From positions 1 to 61,906 of IMG/VR virus record IMGVR_UViG_3300033994_001593: DNA of 61,906 bases; one strand, written 5' to 3'. The position numbers and the translations under genes are program-made. The notes beneath the pieces were generated by a model, which had not been told where the DNA came from, did no database searches, and saw only the letters and a program-made list of their open reading frames with translations. Source of the DNA: a virus. Taxonomy: Duplodnaviria > Caudoviricetes. Position 1 is the first letter of the stretch; each line of letters starts with the position of its first letter. This document shows, one piece after another, positions 2,905 through 61,906 of this stretch.

Positions 2905-2926
2905 ACCAACCCGAAGGGAGACTGAC
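2905..2926 (+). repeat. 22-bp start-associated direct repeat, copy 1
   Basis: ACCAACCCGAAGGGAGACTGAC, identical to 3141-3162. Confidence 0.95.
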
Positions 2927-2927
2927 C

Positions 2928-3137
2928 GTGACTGAAAAGAAATTCCTGGTGCGCTGGGCCAATGGCGAGGCCACCACCCTAACCCTTACCCATATCCAAG
3001 AGCGATGGGATATGGACTACACCAACGACGAGGATGACGAATACGAAGAGACTCTGGGCGAGTGGCTCGACGCCGCCGATGTCGGTGACGAGTTCGTCCA
3101 CCAAGATGACCGTGAAGTTTTTATCCGAACTGAGTAG
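2928..3137 (+). CDS. Small very acidic protein
   Basis: GTG after GAAGGGAGA; D/E-rich 69 aa. Confidence 0.8.
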   Translation: MTEKKFLVRWANGEATTLTLTHIQERWDMDYTNDEDDEYEETLGEWLDAADVGDEFVHQDDREVFIRTE

Positions 3138-3140
3138 ACC

Positions 3141-3162
3141 ACCAACCCGAAGGGAGACTGAC
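3141..3162 (+). repeat. 22-bp start-associated direct repeat, copy 2
   Basis: Identical to 2905-2926. Confidence 0.95.
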
Positions 3163-3163
3163 G

Positions 3164-3643
3164 ATGACGTTTGAAGAATGGCAGAAGACGGCCCAGCGTA
3201 TTGTGAATGACTTTGATTTGAGCAATGCGTCTGAGGGTTTTGGATTGAGCAACGTGGTCGCCGTCGTGCGACACCAGCCCGGTGACATCGCGGAGCTGGC
3301 AGACGGCACCTACTTCACGGTGTTCGACCGCGACGAGGCGAGCGGCACCCTAGAGGAAGTGCAGCGCGCCCTATGGGCGGGGTGGGCTGAGTGGGAGACG
3401 CGAGTCCTGCTGGCGCCGCCGCCCATGCACGCGCGGGAGATGTATGCTCGCCTCGCGATGGCGCTGCAACGGATCGATGCCATCACCGATGGCAGCGAGT
3501 GGCTGGCACAGCGTCACATTCGCCGCGTGATGGATGCGATGGCCGACGAGTTCCTCGACCGGACGGGCGGCGACCTGGCGTTTCAGTCCAAGACCATCGA
3601 AATCCCTCGCGAGGTGTTCAACACGAAGGGGGAGGAGCGATGA
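3164..3643 (+). CDS. Hypothetical early protein (paralogue of 1705..2169)
   Basis: ATG after GAAGGGAGA; MTFEEW N-terminus. Confidence 0.8.
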   Translation: MTFEEWQKTAQRIVNDFDLSNASEGFGLSNVVAVVRHQPGDIAELADGTYFTVFDRDEASGTLEEVQRALWAGWAEWETRVLLAPPPMHAREMYARLAMALQRIDAITDGSEWLAQRHIRRVMDAMADEFLDRTGGDLAFQSKTIEIPREVFNTKGEER

Positions 3644-4008
3644 GGGCGACGATGGGCGTCAACATCAACGACGGCGAAGCCCCGTTCACCCAGATGATTC
3701 TGGACGGGGAGAAGACGGTGGAGACTCGCCGTTCGCGGTCGCTTGATAGCGTGGTCGGCAAGCGGGTGGGCCTGGTTCGCACGGGCTGCGGGCCGGCCAC
3801 GCTCGTCGGCTACGCCACGGTGGGCGAGCCGATCCGATACTCGAACACCGACGAGTTTCGCTCGGAGTACCACCGCCATCGTGTGCCGAAGGGCAGCAGC
3901 CACGACTGCGACGGCGCCGGGAAGTGGGGCTACCCGCTGCTCAACGTGGAGCGGGCCGAAGCGAGGGTCATTGAGAGTCGCGGCATCGTGCTGCGGCGGC
4001 TGCGGTAG
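3640..4008 (+). CDS. ASCH domain protein
   Basis: PF...ILDGEKTVETR matches the ASCH GxKxxExR motif; ATGA overlap with upstream gene. Confidence 0.85.
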   Translation: MRATMGVNINDGEAPFTQMILDGEKTVETRRSRSLDSVVGKRVGLVRTGCGPATLVGYATVGEPIRYSNTDEFRSEYHRHRVPKGSSHDCDGAGKWGYPLLNVERAEARVIESRGIVLRRLR

Positions 4009-4028
4009 TGTACGGTTGTTTGTGTGTC

Positions 4029-4037
4029 TGGTATACT
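4029..4037 (+). promoter_or_regulatory. Extended -10 promoter candidate
   Basis: TGgTATACT in intergenic gap, followed by TATCGATC. Confidence 0.5.
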
Positions 4038-4087
4038 CGTTATCGATCTAGCCAATCGGGCTGGGTCACAACCCCGAAGGGAGAAGG

Positions 4088-4411
4088 ATGATGAAGAAGA
4101 GGCTCGACAAGTTGACCGCGCAGCGGCAGAAGAGGCAGAAGGAAGTGTTGACGAAGGTGGGCCATCGCGTGGCTTGGCTGGCCGCCATGCGGCTGAAGGA
4201 GCGTGGGTGGGAGGATGATGAGATCGGTGACTTGCTGGCCGATGCCATCCATGCAGCAATGACGGCGATCGTGAAAGACCTTGGCACCAAAGGGGAGGTC
4301 GATCCGGCCACCGGCTGGTGGACTGAGGGCAGCGTTCGTCGGGCTGTCAATGTGCGCGAGTACGCCGGTCACTTGGCAGACGCCTACGACGGCGAGCGGC
4401 AGACGGCCTGA
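4088..4411 (+). CDS. Hypothetical protein
   Basis: ATG after GAAGGGAGA; GC-rich hairpin follows at ~4418-4442. Confidence 0.8.
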   Translation: MMKKRLDKLTAQRQKRQKEVLTKVGHRVAWLAAMRLKERGWEDDEIGDLLADAIHAAMTAIVKDLGTKGEVDPATGWWTEGSVRRAVNVREYAGHLADAYDGERQTA

Positions 4412-4492
4412 CGCGAACCCCCTGTCGCCCGCGGGCAGGGGGCTGCGACAGGCCGCCACGTTGGCGGCATTAACCACGAAGGGAGAAGGACG

Positions 4493-6626: not shown

Positions 6627-6638
6627 GAAGGGGGATAA

Positions 6639-10580: not shown

Positions 10581-10815
10581 CTCCCTCTCCCTTCATGCTT
10601 GGGGCCGGCGGTATTGTGAACCACTGGTTGCCCGTTACTCCCATCGATACCTTGAGTCGTGACCGCAGCTCATTGATCTCCGCGGCCGCAGCCTGGGCAG
10701 ATGCGGCGTAGGATTGAATGATGATGTAGAGCCGCTCAATCTCGTCGGCACCACGCAGCAGCATCGCGCGGGTGGCCGCGGCGTGCGAGTCGGCCAGCAT
10801 CCGCATGTGTTCCAC
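10486..10815 (-). CDS. Hypothetical protein
   Basis: ADEIERL coiled coil; start uncertain. Confidence 0.5.
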   Translation of the reverse strand: MEHMRMLADSHAAATRAMLLRGADEIERLYIIIQSYAASAQAAAAEINELRSRLKVSMGVTGNQWFTIPPAPSMKGEGDVNVDGEVAQAENASGDGAARTDQGSAADEG

Positions 10816-24926: not shown

Positions 24927-24974
24927 GTCTGTTCTCCTACCCCGATTTATGGTGCCTTTGCCCCCGGAAGCGGC

Positions 24975-33894: not shown

Positions 33895-33901
33895 TGGAAC
33901 C

Positions 33902-34234: not shown

Positions 34235-34244
34235 CGCAGTTCTC

Positions 34245-34757: not shown

Positions 34758-34758
34758 A

Positions 34759-35289
34759 CTAGATCAAGCCTCCTAGCATGCGGAGCGCCGCGGCCGTGAT
34801 CTGGGCTTGGGCAGCAGACCTCGCTCGCTTGCCGCGGGCGTAGATGTCCTCGATGCCCTCCGAGAAACGGATGTTCGTGTCCGTATCGAAGGTGGCCTTG
34901 GAGGAGTCCATACGGAAACGATCCTGTGCGTTCTGCCGCTGCGACAGGATGTCCTGCGCGCGGGCCTGCTCGGCTTGGGAGCGGTACTTGGTGTTGAACT
35001 CGTCCGCAGACCGCAGCATCGCGTTGCGGCTGGTGTTGGCCGTGGCCTGTGCAAACGCAGTTCGCGACCTATCCCCCGATGAGCGAGACAGTGAGAGGTC
35101 TGATAGTCGTGGAGTCTTGACCGCGGCGATGGTGTTTCGGACTGACTGCCCCAGCGGCTCCTTGGTGTCGATGTGCGACCGGAAAAATCCGGTAGCCTCG
35201 GTTGGGCCTATGACCGGGAAACGCCCGCTGTCAAACCCAGGCTGCGGGGCGCGGCCGATCGGAGGTGGTCTTTTTGGTACTGGACGCAT
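34759..35289 (-). CDS. Putative pilot/ejection protein
   Basis: Helical; ends MLGGLI. Confidence 0.65.
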   Translation of the reverse strand: MRPVPKRPPPIGRAPQPGFDSGRFPVIGPTEATGFFRSHIDTKEPLGQSVRNTIAAVKTPRLSDLSLSRSSGDRSRTAFAQATANTSRNAMLRSADEFNTKYRSQAEQARAQDILSQRQNAQDRFRMDSSKATFDTDTNIRFSEGIEDIYARGKRARSAAQAQITAAALRMLGGLI

Positions 35290-35291
35290 GG

Positions 35292-35849
35292 CTACATCAA
35301 GCCGCGGAGGGCGTTGCTGATGGCACGGATCTTGATCACAGTCCTGCCGGCCTCTTCGACAACCTCGGCCTCTAACAATCCTTTTGGTTCAAACTCGACA
35401 GAAATCGGCACGGCCTCAATCGCCCCCGTGGCATGGTTGAGCCGCGCGTGCTGCCCTCCCATCTGCTTGACGTTGAGGGAAACCGTCGCCTGGGCCACCG
35501 CGTTCTCGGCTCCGGTGTCTACGGAAACGAACGATCCGGCCTTCACGCCGGGGGTATTGATCGTGGGATTGGCCGAGGCTGGCTGGCTGTTGTCATACGG
35601 ATGCCGACCGCCCTTGGGGGCAGGAACACCCAAGGGATCCTTCTTGGATGGGTAGTCCAGATTGGTCAGGACATATCGCCTGGTGTCGCCGTCGATCATC
35701 CGCATGGCCTTAGTCGGGGTGGCGTCCGCGAGCTGGCGTCCGATGTTCGTCCTGCCAGTGGCGACGTTGCCAATGGCGTTGCTGATCACCTTCGCTGCGG
35801 CGGGGGAGATTCCGCCCTCAACCAGACTCCCCTCTAGGTCACTCGGCAT
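35292..35849 (-). CDS. Hypothetical structural-operon protein
   Basis: Follows nozzle-like gene; ends ALRGLM. Confidence 0.7.
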   Translation of the reverse strand: MPSDLEGSLVEGGISPAAAKVISNAIGNVATGRTNIGRQLADATPTKAMRMIDGDTRRYVLTNLDYPSKKDPLGVPAPKGGRHPYDNSQPASANPTINTPGVKAGSFVSVDTGAENAVAQATVSLNVKQMGGQHARLNHATGAIEAVPISVEFEPKGLLEAEVVEEAGRTVIKIRAISNALRGLM

Positions 35850-42913: not shown

Positions 42914-44941
42914 TTAGGGCTGGAGTTCCTGCGGAATCTGAGGAGGCTCCTCCGGTGCCGGGAGGCCAGGAGGAGGATCCCCTGCCGCCGCAGCTCGGCC
43001 GTCAGTGGGAGGGAGTGGCGGCGGCGCGGCGGCAGGGGGGGCGGGTTGCGGAACCAGATACGGAGATGGGTCGATGTCGAGACTGTCGGCCCAATCCTTG
43101 ATGAGTGCGTTGAACGGATCCACCACGCCAGCCCCCACCAGGCCAGAGAGGATCGGCCCGAGCGTCTGCACGGCGAGCTGCATCTGCTCGACGCGGGTGG
43201 CCTTGTTCGGCTTCCTCGCACTGCCGGCCTCGACGCGATAGAGGAAGTCGCGAGTCAGGGCGACGATGTCACGCTGCATGACATGCTGCCCCCACGCCGC
43301 GGCCCCAAGCGGGCCAAGCACCGGCACGACATCCTGCGGCTCAAGCAGCCAGCGGGCGGCAAGGGCTTCGCGGCGAGACAGGAGGGACATGGTGTCCTCG
43401 AGTTCGTTCGCCATGTTGTCGGGCCGAACCGAGATGTTTTCGTTTTTGATGTTCGCTTCCGCAGCCGACCGGAACTGGTTTCTGGTGTAACCGTAGGCCA
43501 GCTCGGTGAGGCCGGTGCGCTGTGCGAACAGATCCGAAACCGCGCTGATGATATCCCAGAGATCCTTGGTGACTTGCGGGAACTGGAACACCGACATCAC
43601 ATCCTCAATGCGTCGGCCCAGCAACTCCGACAGTTCCACAATCTTGAAGCCACCCTCTGATGGAGAAAGGATCTGATCCTTGAGATCCTGGTCGGCCGCC
43701 TTCTGGACGGCCACCATCGTTTCGCATGACGTTGCGATGCGGGTTGCGAGGAACGACATCGCCCAGTTGAGCAGCCGCAGCTCACCGATCGCCGGCCGGA
43801 TGTGGCTGATGGGCCAGGCGTAACCAGGCTTCCAGTGGAAGGCCAGCGGCGTGAAGGGCCAGCCGTTCGGATCTGCATAGAAGGGGATAGGCCAAGAGGT
43901 GCGGGCCACCAGGCTCTGCGGGATGCCGAGCTGCGGATCGACTTCCTCGTCCATGACAGACGGCGGGATGTTCAAGGGGTATTGCACACCCTCGCACACC
44001 ACCAGATAGACATACTTGCCCAGGCTGTCGAAGACGCCCTTGTTTTCCTTGGGGGCGTCCTTGAAGCGGTCGCCCATCCCGCACTTGCTCCAGATCTTGT
44101 AGAAGGTCACCAGCTCGTTGGTGTTCTCGACCTTCTTCCTGCCCCGCGGCTCCCGGCCCAGCTTGGCTTCGTCCTTCTCGAGGTGCTTCTTCAGATCCTC
44201 GACGGGGATGCCGTAGGTGGCTGCGACCTCGAGCATCGGCCTGACGCACTTCTTGGCACACCAGAGCATGTCATCGGAGTTGTCGAAGTCGGGGTCGATT
44301 AGGAGGTTGTCCACCGAATCGTAGAACGAACCGACCATCCTCATGGGCGGCCGGCTGGAGTCGCCGCTGGTGTCGATGATGGTCATCTCTGTCCAGAAGA
44401 CGCCCATCCCCTTGACCATCGCCTCGTTGACCACGCGGCGGGCCTGCTTCTTCAAGTCCAGCTCAACCGGCGACCAGTTCAAATACGCTTCGATGAGCTT
44501 CGACGCGATGTCCCGCCCCTTCCGCTCCTGCTGTTCATGCATCGCGACTTGCATGACCTGTTGCTGCTCGGGCGTCAGGCCCATCGGGCCGGCCGGGGCG
44601 CTCATGCCGAACGCTTCTGGCGTGAGCTGCGGATGCCCCATCACCGTCACCGTTCGCACGGGATTGCGGTGATAGATGACTGAGCAAAAAATCTCCACCA
44701 GCTCGAACACCCGATTGAGCTGCATGCGGAAACTGGGCGGGGCGATGGACGAGTTGTACCCCCGCTCGCCGCGGGCGTAGCTGTCCTTCCACATCCAGTT
44801 ATGCTCGCCGTCGAAGAAGTTAGACGCTTCTTTCGCGTCATCATCGAACGGCTTCTTGTAGTCCTTCGCCGCCTTGAGCTTCTTCGTCCAAGTGCTGACG
44901 ATCTGGCGAAGCGGACTACTTGTTGGCAGCTTCTCGGCCAC
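42914..44941 (-). CDS. Portal protein
   Basis: 675 aa after TerL; LLIDPD, SAAEA, VEAGS, Pro-rich C-terminus like podoviral portals. Confidence 0.8.
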   Translation of the reverse strand: MAEKLPTSSPLRQIVSTWTKKLKAAKDYKKPFDDDAKEASNFFDGEHNWMWKDSYARGERGYNSSIAPPSFRMQLNRVFELVEIFCSVIYHRNPVRTVTVMGHPQLTPEAFGMSAPAGPMGLTPEQQQVMQVAMHEQQERKGRDIASKLIEAYLNWSPVELDLKKQARRVVNEAMVKGMGVFWTEMTIIDTSGDSSRPPMRMVGSFYDSVDNLLIDPDFDNSDDMLWCAKKCVRPMLEVAATYGIPVEDLKKHLEKDEAKLGREPRGRKKVENTNELVTFYKIWSKCGMGDRFKDAPKENKGVFDSLGKYVYLVVCEGVQYPLNIPPSVMDEEVDPQLGIPQSLVARTSWPIPFYADPNGWPFTPLAFHWKPGYAWPISHIRPAIGELRLLNWAMSFLATRIATSCETMVAVQKAADQDLKDQILSPSEGGFKIVELSELLGRRIEDVMSVFQFPQVTKDLWDIISAVSDLFAQRTGLTELAYGYTRNQFRSAAEANIKNENISVRPDNMANELEDTMSLLSRREALAARWLLEPQDVVPVLGPLGAAAWGQHVMQRDIVALTRDFLYRVEAGSARKPNKATRVEQMQLAVQTLGPILSGLVGAGVVDPFNALIKDWADSLDIDPSPYLVPQPAPPAAAPPPLPPTDGRAAAAGDPPPGLPAPEEPPQIPQELQP

Positions 44942-47507: not shown

Positions 47508-47542
47508 AAGCCGGCCCGAAGGTTCACCCCTCGGGCCGGCTT
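47508..47542 (-). terminator. Terminator after capsid genes
   Basis: 12-bp stem AAGCCGGCCCGA/TCGGGCCGGCTT, then CGTTTG on - strand. Confidence 0.7.
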
Positions 47543-50457: not shown

Positions 50458-53400
50458 TTATTGACCCTGAGACTTCCTCCAGCGACTGTACTCTCGCTCT
50501 TGGGGCGTCATGTTCCAATCCGTCATGCCGCTAAACCACTCATCCTGCCGCTGCTGCTCGGCCTCTTCACGCTTCTGGTCAAGGTTCGGATCGTCTGGCT
50601 GGACATCGCCCATGAAAGCGTTGTCTGCATACGGAGTGGTCATCGCTCGCCAGTAGTCCGACCCGAGGATGCCAGCAGTCACGCCTTGGTCTGTGACAAG
50701 GTCGGACGGGATGTCACCGAACTGAACCTTGGCGGCACTTGCCGCCCCCTTCCCCAGCCCCTTGCCTGCCTCCTTCAAGGCTCCGATCAGACTCTTGGAG
50801 GTGGCGGCGGCCCCCAGCCCTCGGGCGATGTTGGCCCCGGCGAACGGAACAGATGCGGCCACGGCGATGGGGCTATCGACCGACTTTCGCGGGAATTGGG
50901 CCAGCATCTCAAATGCCGGCGTTCCCCAAGTGCGAGGCGTCTTGTCGCCCGTCACCCGATCCCACGCCCCCTGGAACTGCGGATAGAACGAAGACTCATA
51001 GGACTCCCGCTTCTCGGCGTCGGCCCTGTTGAGGGCGATGTGCTGGCGAAACTCCTCGGGCGTCATCCCGTCCTTGATGACTTGCTGCGTCCGCTCGATG
51101 TGCTGGTCGCGATCTTGGGTCGTGTTCCACGGCTCCATCAAGGCTTGGTAGTGGGCCGACAGGCTCCACGGCTTTCCGCCCGTTGCCTTGGCCCATTCAC
51201 TGTCGCTGTCGAGCTGGCCGACCATGCCAATGGGATTGCGGTTCCATTCCGAAGCGAAGCGATACATCGGCATCGTCATCTGCCCCTGCCACGACGAGGT
51301 GTCGCCGCCGGCCTTCATCAGACCAGTGAGGGTGCGGGCGTCCCAATCGGAGTAGAGCGGTTTGCCGTCCGCGTCTCGGAACGCTGGTGGGCGGTCGGCT
51401 GGCTGGGAGGTAGCGGCCGACCAGAACTGATTCGCCCGCTTTGCTCGAGTGGAGATCGCATCACCACCAAGAAGCTCGTCGGCACCGGCTGCGCCTCCAC
51501 CCGAGAGGAAGTTTGTAGCCACTGACATGGAGTTGGCGTAGGACGGGGCGTGTTCACCGTCCTGCATCGTGCGGAGCAGCTCATAGCCCGCCTGGGCTTG
51601 GAAGTCTTCGGCGCTGCCTGGGGAGAGCATCCAATCGGCCTGGTCGCCGTACTGCTGCCGCCACTCCGCGAGCTGCTGCTCGCTGATCGGCTCGGCCTTG
51701 GCGTACTTGCCGCCGGGGGCGCTGGCCTTGAGCGATGCCATCATCCTGCCGATCGCCTGCTCGGCCACTTGGCTGACCTGTCCAGTGCTGCCCTCAAGCC
51801 GAGCCACGACCTCGCCCATCACCTTGGCTCTCCCTTCCTCTGGGAGCCGCGGGGCAAACACATCGAGGTACTCACCGACGAACTGTGCAGGCGTGATCCG
51901 AGCGTTTCCATCGCCATCTCCAGCAAAGAGTCCGCGCTGGCCGTCGCCAGCAAGCGAGCCGTCGTTCGCCGCGCCGACGCGGATGATCGGCTGGTTCATC
52001 ACATCGGCCACGTTCTGCCTGAACTGCTGGTGGTCGGGGGAAACATCGCCGGCCTGCTGCCGCTGCTGATGGGCCTCCCACTCTGCTGGACTGATTGCCA
52101 TTGAGAAGTCGAAGTCACCCAACACCGGCCTGACGAGATCCGCAGTGGTTCCGCCGCTGCCGGTGGGGAGCTGGCGGGATTCATTGACGCTCTGGGCCTG
52201 GCCCATGATCGGGGCCGCCATGAGGCCGGCGGGCATGTCGCGGAGGCTGGCCTGCATGTCGCGAACACCGTCCTCGGGGGATCGCGATCGAACCTTGGCG
52301 AGGTGGGCCTGACGCTGGTCGAAGGCGGCCTTGGCCTCTTGGATGAGGTCTGCGTCGGAAGCGTGGCTGGCCTTCTCTGTGTCTGGGCCGACACCACGCA
52401 GGGCAGCAGCAAGCTCGGCCTCCGTCTCGAAGTGTGGGCCGCCGGCAACATAGCTGCCGTAGATGTCTCGAATCTGCTCTTCGTAGTTCTTGGCGGCCCC
52501 CTCATAGTCGTTCGGTTCCATGTCATCATCAACGGAACCCTGCGGATCGTCATCCTCAAAATCCACGTTCCCGTCGCCATCGTCCATCTGCTCAAACTTG
52601 TTGTCCCAATCTTCAACGAGCTGCTCCCGCTGGGCGTCGAGCTTCTCGGCCGTCTTGAAATCGCCGCTTTCGTAGGCCGCGTCCACTTGCTTCGTGAGGC
52701 GGGCGATCTTCCGCTGCGTCTGCCACGGCATGGCAGCTCGGAGAACATCGTCGGACAGGGGGAGGCGCGGGGCGGCGTTTGCCTCCCTATTGCTCCCGGG
52801 AGCGATGCCGGTTGCGGTGCCGAGCGTGATCGCGGCCGGGATGCCCTTGGTGATGATGTTCTTTCGCATCTCGTCGGAGATGACGCCTCGCCAGCCGGAT
52901 GAAGTGGCTTCCTTTTGGGTCGCCGCGACCTTGTCTTGCAGGGCCTGCAACCGCTCCATCGACTGCCGCATCTGGCCGTATTGCTCAATATCTCCCATGA
53001 TCTGCGGAATCAACTGCCCCGCGCGTTCTCTGCCAATCAATGGCTCTAGACGGTCATACAGCTCTTTGCCGGATGCTCGCTCTGCAACAATGGAGCGGGG
53101 GGCGATTTCTTGCGGGTTCCTGAGCCTCGCCGCCGCGGTGTTTTGCAATGTATGGGCAATGCCCCAGAGTCTGTCCGAAACATCCTTTTGTCGCTGGCTG
53201 GCAGCGAGAGGGGCTTTGCTGTTGGGGGCCGTTGCCTCCCAGACCGTGCGATCAGTGCCGTCCACCTCCTTCATAATCCTGCGCTGGATGCTGTTCAGAA
53301 TTTCTTCTGAAGAGTCGTCTAAGTTCCGCAGGGCAACCTCTGCGCTACCCATCTCGCCGCGCATGTTCGGATCAAACCCTGCACCGCCTTCAAGTCCAAG

Positions 53401-54672
53401 TTGGCCGCGAAGCCTCCCCACCCTAGCCGCATCCAGCGGGCTAAACCCGTGCTGCTGCCGCCAGTTAGGGTCTTGCAGCGCCTCTCTGGCGGAATAGAAA
53501 TCCTCCGCGCCGGTGTTATCCCAGATTGTGCCACGATGTTCGGCATAGGCTAAGTATTGCCGAATCTCTTGCTTTGCTTCGACTGGAAGCGAAGAAGTAT
53601 CAAGGATACTTGGGTTGGCTTGGAGCATCTCCTCTGCAATATGAATGTCATCCGTGCCGGCGATGCCTAAAATCCGGTCTTCGAGCGCTGCGGCCTTTTC
53701 TTGGTTTTCTCTGGAATTCAAGCCAGAGTAGTCTGGTGTGCTTTGCTCTGGTGTGCTTTGCGCGAGTGCCTCATCGTAGATGGCATCGTTTCTCGGCCGG
53801 CTGGTAGATTCCCATCCGCCCAGCTTCTTGCCTTGCCGCTCCAGCAACTGCGGGATCATGTTGCCGTAGAATTTTTCTGATTTTTCTAACGGGAAGCCTA
53901 CGGCCCGAGAGATGTCCTCGGGGTATGCGACTTCTACTGCGCGGTAGCCACCGCGAGCCGCATCGAGCAACGCTGATTTCAGTTGCAGCTCTTGCCAGAA
54001 ATCGCGTGCTGCAAAAGGAATTGACGATGGGTCTGCCATGCGTTGCGATTGATTTTGAACATCTGATTGCAGCTCAACGATCCGCAAGGCATCGTCGTTG
54101 CGATCGGTTCGCAGATGGGCAACGACGTTCCCGCCGCGATTTCCCGTGAAGTGGTTGCGGAGTCTATCGTCCTGCCAATTCTTGTTGGATTCTGGAAACG
54201 GATCCAATGGCTGGGTGAGAAGTCGCTCGCGGTAGTCCGGCCCGCCAAGCCCATGCTGATCCCATTTTGGCTGGACGCTATAGCCGCTCTGGCCCTCGCC
54301 GCCTATTGCCACTGGCGATGGGGTGGCCCCACCTTCGCCCAAGATCACATTCTTGTGCGTGAACACTGGACTGTTCTCACGCACGGCGGCCAGCAGCTCG
54401 TCGCGAGTGACGGTCGTGCGTCCATCCACGACAGAGTCGAGATCCACGGCCTTCAGCTCCCAGCCGGGGATCCCGTCCTTGTACCGCTTGAGCAGGCCGG
54501 GGAGTTCCTGCACCCTGACGTTCTCGGGGAGTCCCTGCACGGCTCGCTCAAGGCGGGAGTAGATCCCAGGCCCAGGCTTGTACTCGAGGTAGCCGGCGAC
54601 GTTGTCGCCCTGCTTGAGGGTTCGGATGAGGTTTTCGCCAGCCTTGGCTGCGACCTTGGGATTCGGTGCCAT
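50458..54672 (-). CDS. Giant modular (polyvalent-type) virion/ejection protein
   Basis: 1404 aa from ATG 54672 (TAATG coupling); N-terminal domain with YRExLL, HF, AHLR, ELQSD motifs. Confidence 0.7.
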   Translation of the reverse strand: MAPNPKVAAKAGENLIRTLKQGDNVAGYLEYKPGPGIYSRLERAVQGLPENVRVQELPGLLKRYKDGIPGWELKAVDLDSVVDGRTTVTRDELLAAVRENSPVFTHKNVILGEGGATPSPVAIGGEGQSGYSVQPKWDQHGLGGPDYRERLLTQPLDPFPESNKNWQDDRLRNHFTGNRGGNVVAHLRTDRNDDALRIVELQSDVQNQSQRMADPSSIPFAARDFWQELQLKSALLDAARGGYRAVEVAYPEDISRAVGFPLEKSEKFYGNMIPQLLERQGKKLGGWESTSRPRNDAIYDEALAQSTPEQSTPDYSGLNSRENQEKAAALEDRILGIAGTDDIHIAEEMLQANPSILDTSSLPVEAKQEIRQYLAYAEHRGTIWDNTGAEDFYSAREALQDPNWRQQHGFSPLDAARVGRLRGQLGLEGGAGFDPNMRGEMGSAEVALRNLDDSSEEILNSIQRRIMKEVDGTDRTVWEATAPNSKAPLAASQRQKDVSDRLWGIAHTLQNTAAARLRNPQEIAPRSIVAERASGKELYDRLEPLIGRERAGQLIPQIMGDIEQYGQMRQSMERLQALQDKVAATQKEATSSGWRGVISDEMRKNIITKGIPAAITLGTATGIAPGSNREANAAPRLPLSDDVLRAAMPWQTQRKIARLTKQVDAAYESGDFKTAEKLDAQREQLVEDWDNKFEQMDDGDGNVDFEDDDPQGSVDDDMEPNDYEGAAKNYEEQIRDIYGSYVAGGPHFETEAELAAALRGVGPDTEKASHASDADLIQEAKAAFDQRQAHLAKVRSRSPEDGVRDMQASLRDMPAGLMAAPIMGQAQSVNESRQLPTGSGGTTADLVRPVLGDFDFSMAISPAEWEAHQQRQQAGDVSPDHQQFRQNVADVMNQPIIRVGAANDGSLAGDGQRGLFAGDGDGNARITPAQFVGEYLDVFAPRLPEEGRAKVMGEVVARLEGSTGQVSQVAEQAIGRMMASLKASAPGGKYAKAEPISEQQLAEWRQQYGDQADWMLSPGSAEDFQAQAGYELLRTMQDGEHAPSYANSMSVATNFLSGGGAAGADELLGGDAISTRAKRANQFWSAATSQPADRPPAFRDADGKPLYSDWDARTLTGLMKAGGDTSSWQGQMTMPMYRFASEWNRNPIGMVGQLDSDSEWAKATGGKPWSLSAHYQALMEPWNTTQDRDQHIERTQQVIKDGMTPEEFRQHIALNRADAEKRESYESSFYPQFQGAWDRVTGDKTPRTWGTPAFEMLAQFPRKSVDSPIAVAASVPFAGANIARGLGAAATSKSLIGALKEAGKGLGKGAASAAKVQFGDIPSDLVTDQGVTAGILGSDYWRAMTTPYADNAFMGDVQPDDPNLDQKREEAEQQRQDEWFSGMTDWNMTPQEREYSRWRKSQGQ

Positions 54673-55583
54673 TACTGCGTGAGTCCTTTGAGGATGTGGC
54701 TGACGGTTGGGACGCTCCACGAATTGCCGAGCGCCTTATATCGCTGGTAGTCGGACACGCCTTCGGTGTACCCCTGCGGGAAGCCGAACAGGCCCTCAAT
54801 CTCCTGCGGCGTCATCCTGCGGAATGAGCCGTCCTCCAGTTGCAGGGCGTTGTACGGGACTCCCTTGCGAATCACGCTCGGGATGGTGCGGGCCTTGGGG
54901 TCATTGATGTGGAAGCCGTGCTTCTCAAAGTGCGTTCGGCCGTCTGGCGCTTGTCGGTTGAGGTAGGCCACGCCCTTCGGGGAGATCTGGTACTTGTCGG
55001 GTACGGAGCTGAGCAGGGCATCGCGGAAAATCGCCTGCGACGGCGAGTACTCACCAACCGGGATGTTCGTCCAGAACGCCCGCGGCCTCGCCATCGCCCC
55101 GAAGTCCTTGGCGTCGAGAAACACCGGATCGACACCGAGAGCCTTGGAGATGACCTCAATGTTCTTGTCGCCCTTCGACCCTCGCGGCACCACGTTCTCA
55201 ACTAGGAAGTGCTTGGGCTGGAATTCGTCCAGCATCCGCGGCACCTCCCAGAACAGGCTCGACCGCTCACCATCCAGACCCTTGCCCGTGACGTTCGCCC
55301 TGGAGAGGTCTTGGCAGGGAAAGCCAGCACAGAGCAAATCTGCGGATCCATCCGCTCGAGACGCCGACCGCACGTCGCCCAGGTGCTGAATGTCGGGATA
55401 GTTCTTGGCTGCGATGGCGGCGGCCTTGGGGTCGTTTTCGTAGGCGATGTACGAACCAACCGGGATGCCAGCCCCATCCAAGGCGGCCCTGGCACCGGCA
55501 ATTCCATCAAACCCAGATACAACCTTGATCGGCCGCTGGGCGTTCTTGGCCGCCTTGGCAATGCTATTCGGATTCGGAGCCAT
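54672..55583 (-). CDS. DNA cytosine-5 methyltransferase
   Basis: FDGIAG, GFPCQD, ENV, RPR, ALGNS. Confidence 0.93.
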   Translation of the reverse strand: MAPNPNSIAKAAKNAQRPIKVVSGFDGIAGARAALDGAGIPVGSYIAYENDPKAAAIAAKNYPDIQHLGDVRSASRADGSADLLCAGFPCQDLSRANVTGKGLDGERSSLFWEVPRMLDEFQPKHFLVENVVPRGSKGDKNIEVISKALGVDPVFLDAKDFGAMARPRAFWTNIPVGEYSPSQAIFRDALLSSVPDKYQISPKGVAYLNRQAPDGRTHFEKHGFHINDPKARTIPSVIRKGVPYNALQLEDGSFRRMTPQEIEGLFGFPQGYTEGVSDYQRYKALGNSWSVPTVSHILKGLTQ

Positions 55584-55950
55584 TAACCCACTTCCTTCTC
55601 CACATGCGGATCCGCGCGCGGTGTTCCTTGCGGCGGCGCCACCACTTCAAAATCAAGTCCACGATGAGGGGCAGGAGGATCTGGAGGGCGACGATCCAGA
55701 TGGAGCCGAATTGCTTTTCGCCATAGACGAGGGCCATGTGCCGCCTGACGCTCTTGCTGAGATCGAGCATCGCGGCCATCTCGCCGTCGCTGCCGGCCGG
55801 CGAAGCGGAGAGCAACTCATCGGGCCACTCATGGACGGCGGCTGAGACGGCATCGAATACCGCCTCCTTGCCGGCCAAGTTCTTGCGAACTGGTAGCTCC
55901 GACCAGACCCATTCCTGCAATTGCCCGAGCGTCCTGGTTGGCGATGGCAT
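55564..55950 (-). CDS. Hypothetical protein with C-terminal membrane helix
   Basis: IWIVALQILLPLIV followed by a basic tail. Confidence 0.7.
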   Translation of the reverse strand: MPSPTRTLGQLQEWVWSELPVRKNLAGKEAVFDAVSAAVHEWPDELLSASPAGSDGEMAAMLDLSKSVRRHMALVYGEKQFGSIWIVALQILLPLIVDLILKWWRRRKEHRARIRMWRRKWVNGSESE

Positions 55951-55953
55951 TGG

Positions 55954-56085
55954 TCATCGCTCGCAGTTGCATCCGTTCTTGCAGGACTTGCCCGCCTTCT
56001 CTTTCATGCGGCCGAGCTGCATCTTTTCGTAGCCGGCGTTGAGCCTGTCCTTGATGCTCTTTGAGGGTGCCTTCTTCTTCGCCAT
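55954..56085 (-). CDS. Small basic protein
   Basis: GAAGGGAGG RBS; MAKKKAPSK...CKNGCNC. Confidence 0.55.
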   Translation of the reverse strand: MAKKKAPSKSIKDRLNAGYEKMQLGRMKEKAGKSCKNGCNCER

Positions 56086-56148
56086 AGATGTGATCACCTC
56101 CCTTCCATTGGTTAGGGGCCACCGAACGTCTGCTGTGTTTATGGACAC

Positions 56149-56229
56149 AAAAGAACGCGGCCCGACGCGAAGGGAGAGCGTCGGGCCGCGTGGAGGTCGC
56201 ACTAGCTAGGTGCAACCGGCAAGGAGAGG
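56149..56229 (-). ncRNA. Predicted ~80-nt small RNA or leader with anti-RBS loop
   Basis: Promoter upstream; hairpin 56195-56217; 14-bp terminator stem 56155-56191 with loop TCTCCCTTC and a T tract. Confidence 0.55.
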
Positions 56230-56234
56230 CGAAC

Positions 56235-56264
56235 AGTCTCGCGCGGCGAGACGCCTCAATGTCA
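56235..56264 (-). promoter_or_regulatory. Putative late promoter
   Basis: TGACAT-N18-GAGACT; shares AAAACTGCTGACAT with 50445-50458. Confidence 0.6.
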
Positions 56265-56513
56265 GCAGTTTTCTTTGAACATCCGCCTGGGCGGGAGAAG
56301 AGTCGGCGGCGTGTCTGGGTCGAGCATCGTCCCGGCGTAGTGCCAGAACTTCGCCACGCGATTCAGCTCGTCGCGGACGATGCAAAGCCGGTAGTAGTGG
56401 GCCTCGCCGTCACGGCCAATCGTGCCGAATGCCTGAGACGCAGAGAGTCCAGGGAAGAGCGGGTACTTCTCTCCGCAGAGTGGGCCGCCGATGCATTCGT
56501 AGCGTCTTCGCAT
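56262..56513 (-). CDS. Hypothetical protein
   Basis: GGPLCG motif; ATG 7 nt after TAAACT (likely leaderless). Confidence 0.7.
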   Translation of the reverse strand: MRRRYECIGGPLCGEKYPLFPGLSASQAFGTIGRDGEAHYYRLCIVRDELNRVAKFWHYAGTMLDPDTPPTLLPPRRMFKENC

Positions 56514-56520
56514 GACGCCC

Positions 56521-56542
56521 AGTTTATGGGCGCGTCAAGCGC
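56521..56542 (-). promoter_or_regulatory. Conserved promoter motif, copy 2
   Basis: GCGCTTGACGCGCCC-A-TAAACT. Confidence 0.7.
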
Positions 56543-56549
56543 AACAAGG

Positions 56550-56774
56550 CTACTTCCTGACCTTGGGCCTTCCGCAGCCGGGAGACTTCTCAAAAGCGAG
56601 GGCCGACCGCTTGTTGACCAAGTAGTTTCGGCCGAACTTGAAGCCCGCGATCCTGCCCTTGCGGACGAGTTGGCGAACGTATGGCTCTGCGAAGTCAAGC
56701 AGCTTGGCTGCTTCGGGGAGGGTGATCATCTCCTCCAAGTCGATCGGCATCATCTTTCGCTTCTTCTTTGCCAT
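56550..56774 (-). CDS. Excisionase-like HTH DNA-binding protein
   Basis: ITLPEAAKLL...VRQLVRKGRI.G.K.GR.YLV. Confidence 0.85.
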   Translation of the reverse strand: MAKKKRKMMPIDLEEMITLPEAAKLLDFAEPYVRQLVRKGRIAGFKFGRNYLVNKRSALAFEKSPGCGRPKVRK

Positions 56775-56794
56775 GCGGCAAGTATAGGGAACGG

Positions 56795-57295
56795 CTAAAA
56801 CTCGCTGTCAATGTCTGCTTCTTTCAGCGTAGAAATCGGCCGCAAGTCCGACTGCGGGATGTAGTAGGCAGGCCCACGGCCAGACATGTCCCGCCAGTAC
56901 TTCCGCTGCTTCCCCTCCCTGGCGTAGAGCCAGCCGCGGATCTTGCCCACTCCATTGTTCACGCACACCAAGATGTACTTCTTGCTGTCATCGTCGTTGT
57001 TGTTCAGCACCAAATGCCCAGAGTCGTGGGTGGTGGTGCGGACTTGGTAGTCATCGACATCGCCGCCGCGGAACAAGCCTGCCCCGGCCCAGAACTTGTT
57101 GAGGTACTTCGCGACCACGCACTCCCCGACCGAGCCGACTATGTCGAGCTTCTCCGCATCGGCAGACTGCGCCCCGTAGAAGTTCTGCCGCCCCTTCGCT
57201 CGAGCGCTGGCCCGCCTCAAGCTGCCGGCTATGAGGGCGTGGAGGTACTCGGAGTTGTCGAGGGTGACGGTAATGGTGGTGGATGCGGCTTCCAT
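56795..57295 (-). CDS. Hypothetical protein, possible PD-(D/E)xK-like nuclease
   Basis: G..GE..VAKYL...DV...QVRT pattern. Confidence 0.6.
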   Translation of the reverse strand: MEAASTTITVTLDNSEYLHALIAGSLRRASARAKGRQNFYGAQSADAEKLDIVGSVGECVVAKYLNKFWAGAGLFRGGDVDDYQVRTTTHDSGHLVLNNNDDDSKKYILVCVNNGVGKIRGWLYAREGKQRKYWRDMSGRGPAYYIPQSDLRPISTLKEADIDSEF

Positions 57296-57325
57296 GCTTC
57301 CCTGCATTCGCTCAGTAGTGCCGTC

Positions 57326-57455
57326 CTACGCAATTCACTACGCAGTTCAGGCGACCCTACGCAGTTCCGTCCCTCTCTGCGGCGTGTTGTGCAACTATCC
57401 GGAAATTCCTCTGAGTTGCCGTAGAGCGACTTTCGCGATTCGCGATTCGCGAATC
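57326..57455. repeat. Direct repeats CTACGCARTTC x3 and TTCGCGA x3
   Basis: 11-mers at 57326, 57338, 57357; tandem 7-mers at 57432-57452. Confidence 0.8.
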
Positions 57456-57559
57456 TCTCGCACCGTGCCGGATCGTATTGGCAATCCAACAAAAAGCGCG
57501 TTGTTCCCGATATGTCGCGGGGCGAAACATATCGGAATTGATATGTTTCCAGAACGATC

Positions 57560-57778
57560 TCATTGCAACAGGTTGATCAATTCGTAAGGAATAAGATTGC
57601 GAATTTCTTCAACAATCCTCTCTGTCTCGGGCGACGGTTCGCCGTGCTTCAAGATCGCGCGGCAGCGATTGCCGATTAGCTCTAGCGAGATCAGAGCCTC
57701 TTTGGCGGCGAGGGCATATCGATGCTCTCGCTCGTCATCCGGATCGGAGAGGTTGAATTTCAGTGTGGCGTAGGCCAT
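57560..57778 (-). CDS. Hypothetical protein
   Basis: ATLKFNL.DPDD...LKHGE pattern. Confidence 0.7.
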   Translation of the reverse strand: MAYATLKFNLSDPDDEREHRYALAAKEALISLELIGNRCRAILKHGEPSPETERIVEEIRNLIPYELINLLQ

Positions 57779-57789
57779 GTATAGCGAAG

Positions 57790-57972
57790 TTACTGCGGTT
57801 TATCGGAAATCGATAAACCTGAGATGTGGATGAGAAACAGGATCCCGGCCATGAGGGCGACGAGCAGGATCATGCCCGTCTGCACCTTGGCCGCCCGCTC
57901 GAGCATCTCCCGCATGGCGGCCCGACGCTCCTCAATGTCGGCCAGCATCCTTGCCAGCTCACTGCTGTCCAT
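57790..57972 (-). CDS. Small membrane protein
   Basis: AGGAG RBS; C-terminal TM helix. Confidence 0.6.
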   Translation of the reverse strand: MDSSELARMLADIEERRAAMREMLERAAKVQTGMILLVALMAGILFLIHISGLSISDKPQ

Positions 57973-58126
57973 GACTCAACGCTCCTGGTAGTACCGCCGC
58001 AGCCTATAGTCGAGTGGCGACCATGCCTTCTTGATTCGCCGGCAGGCGATTCTGATCTGCAACCCTGTCGGATCGGGGGCGCGAACAGACACGCCGCCAC
58101 GCTTGCCAAGGTTTTCTGCCAGCGAG

Positions 58127-58981
58127 CTAGTTCCCGCAGTAGCCTTCACACTCATCTTGAAATCCACGAAATAGCATTTGGCCGGTACGTTCATGCTCGG
58201 GCCGAAGATCCACTTGCTCGAGCGGGACACACTGACGGTGGAGGAAACGCTGGGCATCTAGGCCGGTGCCGGTGCGGCACACATGGTCGATCTCCACGGC
58301 CCTGGCCCAGCCCTTGGGGTCGTGGTCGCGGAGCAGCCGCCACTCCTCGTCCTTCTTGAATGGGCAGAAGACGCAGGCCGACCGCGGCACGGGGTGCGGC
58401 ACTCGCTCTTTGAGGTAGGCCATGCAGTCGCCGCGGGTCATCTGCATGTCCCAGAGCGGGAATTCGACCTTCCAGTTCTTGGGTTTTGCCAGGAACCGCT
58501 CCTTGACTCGGATCACCCGCTTCGGCTCGTCAAACGACAGGCCCATGTACTGGACGCACACATCGTCCTTGGGGATGCCCTTGCCGGGGGCCGCGCCGAA
58601 GACCATCTGCCGGATAGCCTGCTCAATAGGAACGACCTTGAAGTCCTTCGTGCATTGCCGCTGCACCGCCCCCATTCGACCGTCAGGGTGCTTGGTGAAC
58701 GCCGGGATGGAGATGTAGTGACCGCCGTCACGGCGGGAATTGCCGCTGGCGTCCGTTCCCTTGTCGAGGGCATCGCCCAGCCTGCCGGCCGTCACTCGCA
58801 GGATCGGCGGGCCACCCAGCGAGTCCAGCCAATCAAGGTGCTTGTAAACGTCATCCGGCTCCTCCTGCGTGTCCGCGAAGATAGCCACATCGAACTTGTG
58901 AACCTCACCCTCAAGGGCCATGAGGAACAGGGTGGTCGATTGGACGCCAGCCCCCAGGTTTAAAACGTGCTTTTCAGTCAT
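58127..58981 (-). CDS. PAPS-reductase-like (PP-loop, adenine nucleotide alpha-hydrolase) protein
   Basis: LGAGVQS, FADT, RQCT..FK, SACVFCPF, ECEGYCG. Confidence 0.8.
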   Translation of the reverse strand: MTEKHVLNLGAGVQSTTLFLMALEGEVHKFDVAIFADTQEEPDDVYKHLDWLDSLGGPPILRVTAGRLGDALDKGTDASGNSRRDGGHYISIPAFTKHPDGRMGAVQRQCTKDFKVVPIEQAIRQMVFGAAPGKGIPKDDVCVQYMGLSFDEPKRVIRVKERFLAKPKNWKVEFPLWDMQMTRGDCMAYLKERVPHPVPRSACVFCPFKKDEEWRLLRDHDPKGWARAVEIDHVCRTGTGLDAQRFLHRQCVPLEQVDLRPEHERTGQMLFRGFQDECEGYCGN

Positions 58982-59926: not shown

Positions 59927-59971
59927 ACCCTTCTCCCTTCTTGAGAATAAACCGATTCGATATCGGCTTTC

Positions 59972-61543
59972 CTACCGTTTTACGGGCGTGTCAAGCGCAG
60001 CCACCAGATTTATCCGTTCACCGATCCACCGCATGACAGGAACCGCCATTGAATTGCCCAGAGCCTTGTACCGCGGCCCGTCTGCGGCGGGCTTCTTCCG
60101 GTACTCCACCAGCGTGTAATCGTCGGGGAAGCCCTGGAGACGCTCGCACTCGCGGGGCGTGAGGCGGCGAACGGCCATTGAGGACTCTATTGCGTGAACG
60201 TCGTGGCCGTGCATGGAGTTCAGCGTGTATGACGGCCCGCCAGCCTGGGCAACGGAGTTGCTCTTGCTGCCCTGCATATTGACCATTGGCACCTCGGCGC
60301 CGCAGGCCACCACCGTTGTGGCCCGAGTGTCGCCAGAGTCGAAGCAGCTCATCGTCGGGCTGACCTCACCAGGCACCCATGTCTCGTCATCGGTGTTGCT
60401 CTGGGCGCGTTTGGACTTAGTGAATGCGACCGCCGGAGGGGAGGGAATCCCCAAGCCGCTGCCCACTCGCACCGTTGGCGATGTGCCGTCCTCGAAAACG
60501 TCACCCCCGTGAGAGCCGAGATTGGACTGAAAGGCCACGGCGTCCTGTGCTGGCTGGGCCACCACGTTCGACGGCCTGCTGGGCCTGTTCTCGCCCTCTG
60601 CCCGCAGCGTCCCGGCGATATCGTCTTTCATCCAGAAGCCTGGGCCGCTCTCTCGCATTGAGAGAACCTCTGGGGCCGGCTGGGCCACCACGTTCCTCAA
60701 CTGGAACACGCTGCCCTCGTTGGTGTATGTCCGCTGCTCGTTGTGGCAGATGGCGTGGGCCGGATCGTTGCTGAGAATCAGATGGCCCGCATCTAGATCT
60801 GCGTTGCTCGACCCGCCGTTCTGGCCGGCTCGAGCGACCACCGCCCCGACTACTTCGCCGTTTTGGCCGAGGGCGTTGAGCGGCTGTCCATCGCCGCCGA
60901 CGAAGGTGTATTGCTGCTCCTTCGCACTTGCCCCTCCAGTGCTTGCGCTAAGCGCTCGGGCAACTTGCGCCCCCGGCGTTCCGCGCGACGGAGGATCCCC
61001 GAACACGCTTTCGCGCTCAAAAAGTACCGCTGCTGCACGGCGCCAGTCTCCAAGGTGTGCGACAACGAACACACGACGGCGTCTTTGGGCGACTCCAAAC
61101 CATTGAGCGTCAAGCGTCCGGTAGGCCCACCCGTACCCGAGTTGCTCCAACGCCCCGAGGAAGGTGCCAAAATCCCGTCCTTTTCCACTACTAAGGACGC
61201 CCGGCACGTTTTCCCATACGATCCATTGGGGGCGCATGACTGAAGCAAGCTGAACGAATCGGAGGGCCAAGTTACCACGCGGGTCATCCAAGCCCCCTCG
61301 GAGTCCTGCGACTGAGAAGGATTGGCAGGGCGTTCCTCCGACCAGAAGTTCAACTGCTCCCCGGCCATTGAGCATTTCCTCCGTGATCTTGGTCATGTCG
61401 CCAAGGTTGGGATACCCAAAGTGGTGATCCACAACAGCGATCGGGAACGGCTCGACCTCACTCGTCCATGCACATTCCCAGCCCAGGGGCTTCCAAGCCA
61501 CATGGGCGGCACCGATTCCATCGCATACGCTGGCGTACCTCAC
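59972..61543 (-). CDS. DNA cytosine-5 methyltransferase, alpha polypeptide with long modular variable region
   Basis: CDGIG, GGTPCQ, WENV, QRRRR, RRLTP.ECERLQGF, ALGNS; GTG start 61543. Confidence 0.93.
   Translation of the reverse strand: MRYASVCDGIGAAHVAWKPLGWECAWTSEVEPFPIAVVDHHFGYPNLGDMTKITEEMLNGRGAVELLVGGTPCQSFSVAGLRGGLDDPRGNLALRFVQLASVMRPQWIVWENVPGVLSSGKGRDFGTFLGALEQLGYGWAYRTLDAQWFGVAQRRRRVFVVAHLGDWRRAAAVLFERESVFGDPPSRGTPGAQVARALSASTGGASAKEQQYTFVGGDGQPLNALGQNGEVVGAVVARAGQNGGSSNADLDAGHLILSNDPAHAICHNEQRTYTNEGSVFQLRNVVAQPAPEVLSMRESGPGFWMKDDIAGTLRAEGENRPSRPSNVVAQPAQDAVAFQSNLGSHGGDVFEDGTSPTVRVGSGLGIPSPPAVAFTKSKRAQSNTDDETWVPGEVSPTMSCFDSGDTRATTVVACGAEVPMVNMQGSKSNSVAQAGGPSYTLNSMHGHDVHAIESSMAVRRLTPRECERLQGFPDDYTLVEYRKKPAADGPRYKALGNSMAVPVMRWIGERINLVAALDTPVKR
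59977..59998 (-). promoter_or_regulatory. Conserved promoter motif, copy 3
   Basis: GCGCTTGACACGCCC-G-TAAAAC. Confidence 0.65.
60850..61368 (-). CDS. Nested alternative-frame MTase subunit (M.EcoHK31I beta-like)
   Basis: GGAGG RBS before ATG 61368; SLS..LE...RYFLS.KAC.GILRRA..RG..LP motif; wholly inside the MTase gene. Confidence 0.75.
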   Translation of the reverse strand: MAGEQLNFWSEERPANPSQSQDSEGAWMTRVVTWPSDSFSLLQSCAPNGSYGKTCRASLVVEKDGILAPSSGRWSNSGTGGPTGRLTLNGLESPKDAVVCSLSHTLETGAVQQRYFLSAKACSGILRRAERRGRKLPERLAQALEGQVRRSSNTPSSAAMDSRSTPSAKTAK

Positions 61544-61906
61544 GCCTGTCCAGTATCCGGCTCTGTCAAATGCAACAACGAAAAAACTGGGTGGGCCGGC
61601 CAAAGCCTCCCCGCAGCTCGAGACTGAAGGGGAGGGAACCCGCGGAGATGGCGAGCCGGTTTATCAGTCCGGTGCCGGCCACGGGTACGGTCGCAAGCAT
61701 CCGACCGCAGCTCGCACCGAGGTAGCGATCCCCGGTGTGCCTACACCTACCAGCGGGCCTTGCATTGCCCAGAGTGGGTCTGCCGCAGGGGGTGCCTGTT
61801 CAAGCGTATAGGCTCGCCTCTGACGGGTCAACCGCGGCGGGGGTGTCGAGATAGCCTCGGGGGCCGAACGGGCGGCAGAGGGCCAGCCAGGAGGCCCATT
61901 TGCAAA

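Follow-up and report, generated by a model that had tools for sequence, protein, structure and literature searches.

Why does a terminator lying ahead of the structural genes of a lake-water phage carry in its loop the exact complement of that phage's own ribosome-binding sites? The window analysed here, the whole 61,906 bp of a complete IMG/VR virus record (IMGVR_UViG_3300033994_001593; 62% G+C), contains on its minus strand a strong hairpin whose 9-nucleotide (nt) loop, UCUCCCUUC, is complementary to the motif GAAGGGAGA found before several of its genes. A preliminary description, drawn from the letters alone, took the locus for a separate late small RNA (sRNA) gene that silences a tagged set of early genes. 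Our own reading, held tentatively and at a probability of about 0.48, is that the element is the terminator of the upstream operon, equipped with a selected anti-Shine-Dalgarno (anti-SD) loop.

On this reading the hairpin would close the upstream minus-strand operon, comprising a C5 methylase, a PAPS-reductase-like gene, a helix-turn-helix (HTH) protein and an 83-amino-acid (aa) open reading frame (ORF), directly before a CCATAA(A/G) box, found throughout the family, at which the structural-gene block is probably started or controlled. Any RNA ending at the terminator would display an accessible UCUCCCUUC, which could pair by nine Watson-Crick pairs with GAAGGGAGA ribosome-binding sites, and the likely consequence would be that the paired sites are masked. 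The loop might act in trans, on stereotyped sites of the divergent plus-strand block, or in cis, on the Shine-Dalgarno (SD) sequence of a small ORF ~65 nt downstream in read-through transcripts, and we give the two roughly equal odds. No independent promoter is needed, since every locus seen has the box, unchanged, 3' of this position. The anatomy of the terminator, the covariation in its stem, the conserved loop and its clustered complementarity can be read directly from the sequences; pairing of the loop in vivo, the identity of the RNA that carries it and its timing we infer.

The terminator hairpin and its loop

Judged by its sequence and covariation, the hairpin is an RNA-level Rho-independent terminator of the minus strand. 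The perfect 14-bp stem and T tract of the preliminary description were found where it had placed them; on the plus strand there is an A-rich run before the hairpin and no T tract after it. The terminator stands 70 nt 3' of the stop codon of the 83-aa ORF on the same strand, and the transcript that it ends is most likely that of this ORF. Folding of the surrounding 184 nt gives -87 kcal/mol (z = -6.7), with the loop unpaired in the minimum-energy fold. A terminator scan, which allows only 3-8-nt loops, missed the hairpin for that reason, and our own hairpin scan ranked it as the strongest terminator-like hairpin in the window. Another strong terminator (290-259, minus strand), after the minus-strand gene 308-1159, has a 4-nt GCAA tetraloop, so 9-nt loops are not the rule in this phage. 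A further strong hairpin, with a 12-bp stem and an 11-nt loop, lies between capsid-region genes (47508-47542).

Relatives were collected by several routes. Protein-guided scans yielded five close IMG/VR relatives, 85-89% identical at the amino-acid level in a 128-aa ORF downstream of the terminator, plus one metagenome contig; a capsid-guided GTDB scan yielded locus L029, a 58-kb contig in a metagenome-assembled genome (MAG) titled uncultured Rubrivivax sp., whose capsid protein is 79% identical; and an alignment-guided scan added 13 further, more distant loci. A metagenome scan with the 128-aa alignment returned two loci only, one of them a duplicate of relative G004, and blastn of 54000-58000 against a phage GenBank collection found no match. 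In a tree of the 128-aa protein, the phages that carry the small ORF fall into four lineages joined in an unresolved polytomy, one being the window group, two being L029 and L048, and the last the clade of L046, L053 and L054. In pattern searches of IMG/VR, a pattern for the second hairpin of the locus (H2, Table 1) recovered the family together with eight chance matches, and TTTTGTGTCCATAA occurred in at least 118 stretches, where, among the matches listed, none of the ten that passed a hairpin/ORF filter was related.

Across these relatives the stem changes while remaining paired. Two adjacent pairs have changed on both sides (GA to AG and UC to CU) in four of the six aligned sequences, and the L029 stem shares only ~8 of 14 arm positions with the window, yet is fully paired and followed by a U tract. 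The loop is UCUCCCUUC in the window, L002-L005 and L014, UCACCCUUC in L006, where an extra A-U pair lengthens the stem, and UCUCCUUUC in L029. Its length is constant at 9 nt in all three variants and 8-9 of its 9 positions are identical across the three lineages, over stems altered by compensatory changes. The loop is better kept than the stem arms and far better than the remaining spacer, which is unalignable between the window and L029; at least eight identical positions of nine would be expected with a probability of ~1e-4 in unrelated sequence. We regard this argument for selection as suggestive, not as proof.

The loops also resemble the 3' tail of 16S rRNA. The 16S genes of three relatives of the Rubrivivax MAG, taken as likely relatives of the host (ends read via RF00177 in 3 of 13 relatives), end in GATCACCTCCTTTC(T/A), which makes the loops close copies of that tail, and its CUCCUUUC accounts for eight of the nine nucleotides of the L029 loop. 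The predicted duplex of the window loop with its best sites reaches -15.4 kcal/mol, and that of a 16S-like probe with its own best sites -12.6 kcal/mol. Two pattern matches taken as candidates for the 3' end of the Rubrivivax MAG's own 16S gene turned out not to be rRNA, and a longer 16S 3'-end pattern found nothing in 21 genomes.

Other roles for the same letters were tried and set aside. Read on the plus strand, the loop could serve as the ribosome-binding site of GTG 56190, which opens a 202-aa ORF; this ORF runs antisense to conserved minus-strand genes with high G+C at third codon positions (GC3), and L029 has no start codon after the loop on that strand. A boxA-like CGCUCU at the stem/loop border is lost in L006 and L029, and a CsrA-type GGA loop on the plus strand is lost in L006, that strand having no terminator. 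A palindromic DNA operator centred ~42 bp before the presumed start fits poorly with arms that vary around a constant centre.

Ribosome-binding sites complementary to the loop

Exact matches to GAAGGGAGA number eight in the window against 0.66 expected, a count reached in none of 100 shuffles, and one of the eight is the loop itself. Each of the other seven is followed, after 3-6 nt, by a start codon in frame, and most belong to the divergent plus-strand block (Table 1). The preliminary description had listed six starts preceded by the exact complement of the loop, and in all six the motif does lie 3-6 nt from the start codon. The complementarity between the loop and the sites spans the loop from border to border and no further. 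Among the 9-mers of 70 called upstream regions GAAGGGAGA ranks first, occurring in five of them and, in addition, before a hand-added gene at 2928 that the caller had missed; the chance that a random 9-mer equals a given 9-mer is 4e-6. A complement to the loop of at least 6 nt precedes seven of the eight plus-block genes and six of the 63 others (Fisher p ~1e-5).

The seventh site (51829..51837) has its GTG within the frame of the 1420-aa ORF, as judged from the ORF coordinates. The GTG-ATG that follows it (51817-51837, minus strand) suggests that initiation inside the gene yields a nested product of its C-terminal 454 aa; this 454-aa part has no Pfam family.

The divergent block shows the same kind of site in other phages. 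Stereotyped initiation regions, built as a CA-rich run, (G)AAGGGAG(A), 5-6 nt and ATG, occur at 2900-7000 (plus) in the window, 33500-38300 (minus) in G004 and 100-4100 (minus) in G030, and the genes behind them share no homology from one phage to the next; the divergent block of G004 holds other genes than that of the window, yet the same stereotyped sites. In G029 (L073), a complete relative, the unit GCGGATTTCCGGCAAC...GGGAGGACGAGTG-ATG stands before at least six genes of the plus-strand early block (600-7500).

We then counted, genome by genome, the sites matching a given loop by at least 7 nt. The window has nine such sites for its own loop, one for the L029 loop and one for a 16S-like probe; G004 has six, none and two, respectively; and the L029 contig has five for its own loop, one for the window loop and five for the 16S-like probe. 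The variant loop of L029 matches the commonest SD words of L029 itself, and in four lineages, representing few independent events, the length of the G-run in the commonest SD word tracks that of the C-run in the CU-rich element. A candidate compensatory change within one gene was rejected, as the window gene at 59926 is not homologous to the G5 gene that has a site matching the L006 loop.

A far-reaching version of the trans action would hold that, in temperate Burkholderiales-type phages, the terminator of the pre-late operon mimics the 16S 3' tail, and that its accumulating stem-loops out-compete ribosomes at a GAAGGGAGA-tagged regulon (the divergent plus-strand block and a few other genes), forming an RNA-only early/late translational switch in which loop and tag co-evolve, with a CCC/GGG form in the window lineage and a CC/GG form in the Rubrivivax-MAG lineage. 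We consider this version unlikely. The trans model predicts that divergent-block sites should lie nearer to GAAGGGUGA in phages of the L006 type and nearer to GAAAGGAGA in those of the L029 type.

The junction with the structural-gene block

Immediately 3' of the U-rich tail lies the CCATAA(A/G) box, which is invariant at every locus examined, with or without a terminator, and stands 28-75 nt 5' of the first ORF of the structural block. The window contains six copies of its form CCATAARC where 1.29 would be expected, every one of them on the minus strand, and our own regex scan placed the box CCATAAAT at 24952, 18 nt before ATG 24926. The box is a possible late promoter or regulatory site, and the terminator would insulate it from upstream transcription.

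The first gene after the terminator, a 43-aa Lys/Cys-rich ORF, would provide the partner for pairing in cis. Its GAAGGGAG(G) can form eight Watson-Crick pairs and one G-U pair with the loop, the complement being that of CUCCCUUC in the loop with GAAGGGAG at 56105-56098, and the corresponding complement in L046 is CGGCUCCU with AGGAGCCG. L046 and L054 have no terminator; in its stead a linear CU-rich tract (GGCUCCUUCG and CUUCCUCCCCUUCUCU, respectively) immediately precedes the box. By partition-function folding these tracts are predicted to lower the accessibility of the SD in read-through RNA, to a level reached by one of 30 and none of 30 shuffled-upstream controls, respectively (G27 1/30, G30 0/30).

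The 83-aa ORF on the other side of the terminator is supported by its GC3 and is conserved in relatives, in an 85-aa form in L029; it has no Pfam or PHROG match, and its AlphaFold model is of low confidence (predicted local distance difference test, pLDDT, 57). No SD precedes it, and a CCATAAAC box, kept in relatives, ends 9 nt 5' of its ATG (56514-56535, minus strand); for these two reasons its mRNA may be leaderless or nearly so. In metatranscriptome X19, a contig from a relative covers 55619-56111 and none falls on 56112-56660, which speaks neither for nor against the element, as contigs cannot show starts, ends or levels; the contig end at 56111 lies 26 nt 5' of the small-ORF ATG and 26 nt 3' of the CCATAA box.

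The wider layout was obtained with a rough gene caller based on GC3 and SD sequences and with PHROG and Pfam scans. The minus strand holds nearly all genes, from ~61.6 kb down to ~7 kb, and the divergent plus-strand block occupies ~1.7-7 kb. C5 cytosine methylase genes lie on both sides of the locus (54672-55583 and 59972-61603, both minus), and the PAPS-reductase-like gene spans 58127-58981 (minus). The presence of a tyrosine integrase and a serine recombinase points to a temperate phage. ARAGORN places a tRNA-Met at 16686-16759 (minus), overlapping the annotated 5' end of an exonuclease-like ORF and lying ~135 nt from the tyrosine integrase gene (16895-17821, plus); it may be an attP site or a copy of a tRNA integration site. 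The related contig G004 (38562-40014) spans the junction of the window's end with its start, and the record is therefore circularly permuted or circular.

Table 1. Features of the terminator locus and of the sites that match its loop (window coordinates unless a locus is named).
Feature	Position	Strand	Remarks
Genes upstream of terminator		-	C5 methylase, PAPS-reductase-like gene, 170-aa ORF, HTH/excisionase-like ORF, 83-aa ORF
83-aa ORF	56262..56513	-	Stop TGA 56264-56262
Promoter-like motif	56235..56264	-	TGACAT 56264-56259, 18-nt spacer, GAGACT 56240-56235
Hairpin H1, GUCUCGC-CGC-GCGAGAC	56236..56252	-	Directly 3' of stop codon; -17.9 kcal/mol, z -2.2
CU-rich 5' tract CCUCUCCUU	56221..56229	-	UCCUUG invariant in 6 close relatives; no L029 counterpart
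Hairpin H2, GGUUGCAC-CUAGCUA-GUGCGACC	56195..56217	-	Column pair 55-71: CG in 5 sequences, UG in 1 (window)
Intrinsic terminator hairpin	56155..56191	-	Perfect 14-bp stem 56191-56178 / 56168-56155, 12 G-C pairs
Terminator loop UCUCCCUUC	56177-56169	-	9 nt
U-rich tail UCUUUUGUGU	56145..56154	-	In every terminator-bearing relative
CCATAAAC box	56137..56144	-	CCATAA(A/G); CCATAAC in L048
Further CCATAA boxes	56522-56529; 24945-24952; L029 2802	- (window boxes)	Before 83-aa ORF; before 491-aa tail-region gene
SD region GGAAGGGAGGUGAUC of small ORF	56092..56106	-	Invariant in 6 close relatives
43-aa Lys/Cys-rich small ORF (MAKKK...)	55954..56085	-	First gene after terminator; conserved with indels; no Pfam family
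Genes downstream of terminator		-	43-aa Lys/Cys-rich ORF (ATG 56085), 128-aa ORF, second C5 methylase, 1420-aa ORF, then capsid/portal/tail
Four exact GAAGGGAGA sites	2913, 3149, 4076, 4478 (2913..4486)	+	Divergent block
6-7-nt versions of GAAGGGAGA	Before starts 4867, 5853, 6642	+	Divergent block
GAAGGGAGA site	10586..10594	-	5 nt before ATG 10580; 105-aa product matches PHROG annotated 'nucleotide kinase'
GAAGGGAGA site	51829..51837	-	6 nt before in-frame GTG 51822 inside 1420-aa ORF
GAAGGGAGA site	59932..59940	-	5 nt before ATG 59926; 107-aa ORF, no family

Alternative explanations and known systems

The most serious competitor, doubtful in our view, is a plain terminator with a functionless loop, its match to the ribosome-binding sites being a by-product of composition, of shared ancestry or of module exchange with the adjacent box. 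SD-like words are common before genes, and any CU-rich loop finds partners among them. Several points weigh against a selected anti-SD loop, and two of them, the 80% identity of the local block and the other loops of L048 and L053, also speak for a plain terminator. Within the close group the identity of the loop counts for little, because identity reaches 82% over the whole 175-nt intergenic region, a level equal to that of coding DNA; from the 3' arm to the box, the window and L029 agree at 80% of positions, and at that level eight matches of nine are unremarkable (p ~0.44). The covariation amounts to one or two events, given ~4 independent lineages in an unresolved polytomy. The terminators that L048 and L053 carry in this position have other loops, with no anti-SD, so the arrangement of terminator and box can dispense with it. 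In the L029 contig GAAAGGAGA is found only as the loop itself, exact 9-mer targets not being kept, and since the 16S-like probe matches five sites there as well, nothing sets the L029 loop apart from a generic anti-SD. Naive all-against-all duplex energies between upstream elements and SD windows, which ignore intramolecular structure, gave no diagonal signal, and nested folding, beyond which loop-SD kissing lies, did not predict SD masking in the window (6/30), G1, G2, G5, G6 or L029. Furthermore, the gene starts come from our own rough GC3/SD caller, and the element is read from sequence.

What a plain terminator leaves unexplained is the loop itself, which is large and fixed in length in three variants, is more conserved than the stem arms (~8 of 14 positions, window versus L029), and is the exact complement, ending at the loop borders, of the single commonest upstream 9-mer. 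CU-rich tracts also occur at the same place in relatives that have no terminator. The loop looks selected as an anti-SD sequence.

The separate gene of the preliminary description fares worse, and we think it quite improbable. It would be an independent sRNA gene of ~85 nt, transcribed from TGACAT-N18-GAGACT, with three CU-rich seeds (5' end, linker and terminator loop) that silence GAAGGGAGA-tagged genes in trans; it shares the loop-to-site evidence given above and could account for an intergenic region conserved like coding DNA. The predicted RNA, with a single-stranded CCUCUCCUU, H2 and the terminator loop, has the layout of Listeria LhrC as described in the accessible part of PMC4132741. 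The letters of the promoter motif are present as reported, and four close lineages whose spacer has diverged still share the A2 and T6 of its -10 element and its 17-18-nt spacing; as a promoter the motif is weak. The -35 consists of the stop codon and the last codons of the 83-aa ORF, and as TGACAT contains the TGA stop, coding explains its conservation. GAGACT matches TATAAT at three of six positions, a sigma-70 scan reported nothing at the motif, and the motif is absent in L029 and L048.

H1 overlaps the putative spacer and -10, and at its position L006 (z -2.8) and the L003 group (G4 44185-44206) have hairpins of other sequence and L002 a weak one; a hairpin that recurs in fold and not in sequence fits a transcribed 3' untranslated region better than a promoter. 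H2 was correctly assigned to the minus strand, where the window has U-G in place of the C-G of five relatives: U56214-G56198 would be a C-A mismatch on the plus strand. The two further anti-SD-like tracts that had been proposed divide, as the 5' CCUCUCCUU is present, paired with the downstream SD in the minimum-energy fold and not in the consensus fold, while ACCUCC (56197-56192) has half its length in the H2 stem and is not kept in relatives. The place of the 5' part is taken in L029 by an additional 79-aa ORF, and in L048 the terminator follows the upstream ORF by ~20 nt. No Rfam family reached the gathering score anywhere in the window, the best sub-threshold hit at 55900-56600 (E<=10) scoring 22 bits against a threshold of 88.

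We judge an attenuator or antitermination leader of the late operon, which the preliminary description had offered as its own alternative, to be very improbable. Transcription from an upstream promoter would give a short RNA and would continue past the terminator once a phage factor, for which the 83-aa protein might serve, permitted it, in the manner of lambda PR'-6S RNA-tR', where a short terminated RNA at the early/late boundary depends on an upstream conserved promoter and on Q. The order of a small regulator-like ORF, ~100 nt, a strong terminator and the first late genes does resemble lambda Q-PR'-tR'-S, the two loci sharing a place before the first late genes, and the 83-aa ORF is tied to the junction in the window group, L029, L048 and L054. 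However, neither a conserved promoter upstream of the terminator nor a Q-family protein was found (the latter by Pfam and PHROG scans), the 83-aa protein has neither a family nor a confident model, L046 and L054 have no terminator, the invariant box stands 3' of it, and such a leader gives no reason for an anti-SD loop. Least probable of all is a loop that binds a phage or host RNA-binding protein modulating termination or RNA stability, as opposed to a pairing seed: its sequence is kept over changing stems, and terminator-loop bases of E. coli SdsR, RseX and ArrS matter apparently without direct target pairing (PMC11979758, in the part available), but no candidate protein was identified and pairing explains more simply the likeness to the 16S tail and the exact complementarity to ribosome-binding sites.

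A phage RNA that masks ribosome-binding sites, as the anti-SD loop would do, has a precedent in the c4 antisense RNA of phages P1 and P7. Encoded upstream in the same transcription unit, c4 can act in cis or in trans to mask the site from which a gene farther downstream is translated. Unlike the window element, it arises by processing of a longer transcript and does not form a terminator loop, and it is not known to be related to that element in sequence.

Pairing of CU-rich loops with SD sequences is known from Gram-positive bacteria. According to the accessible part of PMC4132741, CUCCC motifs in a loop, a linker and the terminator loop of Listeria monocytogenes LhrC bind GGGAG SD sequences and block translation, and the same source names RNAIII and RsaE among other RNAs with UCCC seeds. 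The window RNA would present three similar unpaired CU-rich sites, the terminator loop included; unlike it, LhrC as described there is a multicopy chromosomal gene of a low-GC Gram-positive with proven separate transcription. The window transcript is putative, phage-borne and from a genome of 62% G+C, its putative targets are the phage's own genes, and the loop alone is kept in distant relatives. S. aureus RNAIII and RsaE likewise pair C-rich hairpin loops with SD sequences, so far as that source covers them. They differ from the window element in being host regulators, not phage ones, with no sequence or Rfam relation to it. Hairpin 14 of RNAIII is a terminator loop. In E. coli the terminator loop of OxyS kisses the fhlA initiation region, and in OxyS, as in SdsR, RseX and ArrS, exposed terminator-loop nucleotides carry regulatory specificity (PMC11979758, in the part available). 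All of these are Hfq-dependent enterobacterial sRNAs, unlike the window element, and direct pairing is unsupported for SdsR, RseX and ArrS in the same portion of that paper.

Should the loop have no function, what is left is an ordinary junction of terminator and promoter, and the family-wide CCATAA box would still be useful as a candidate late-promoter signature. If the loop does mask ribosome-binding sites, a terminator that the phage needs anyway would compactly time the translation of a whole gene set, and annotation would have to allow for conserved terminator loops that can carry information. The principle of a CU-rich loop set against SD sequences, known from the sRNAs of Gram-positive bacteria, would then extend to phages of high-GC Gram-negative hosts.

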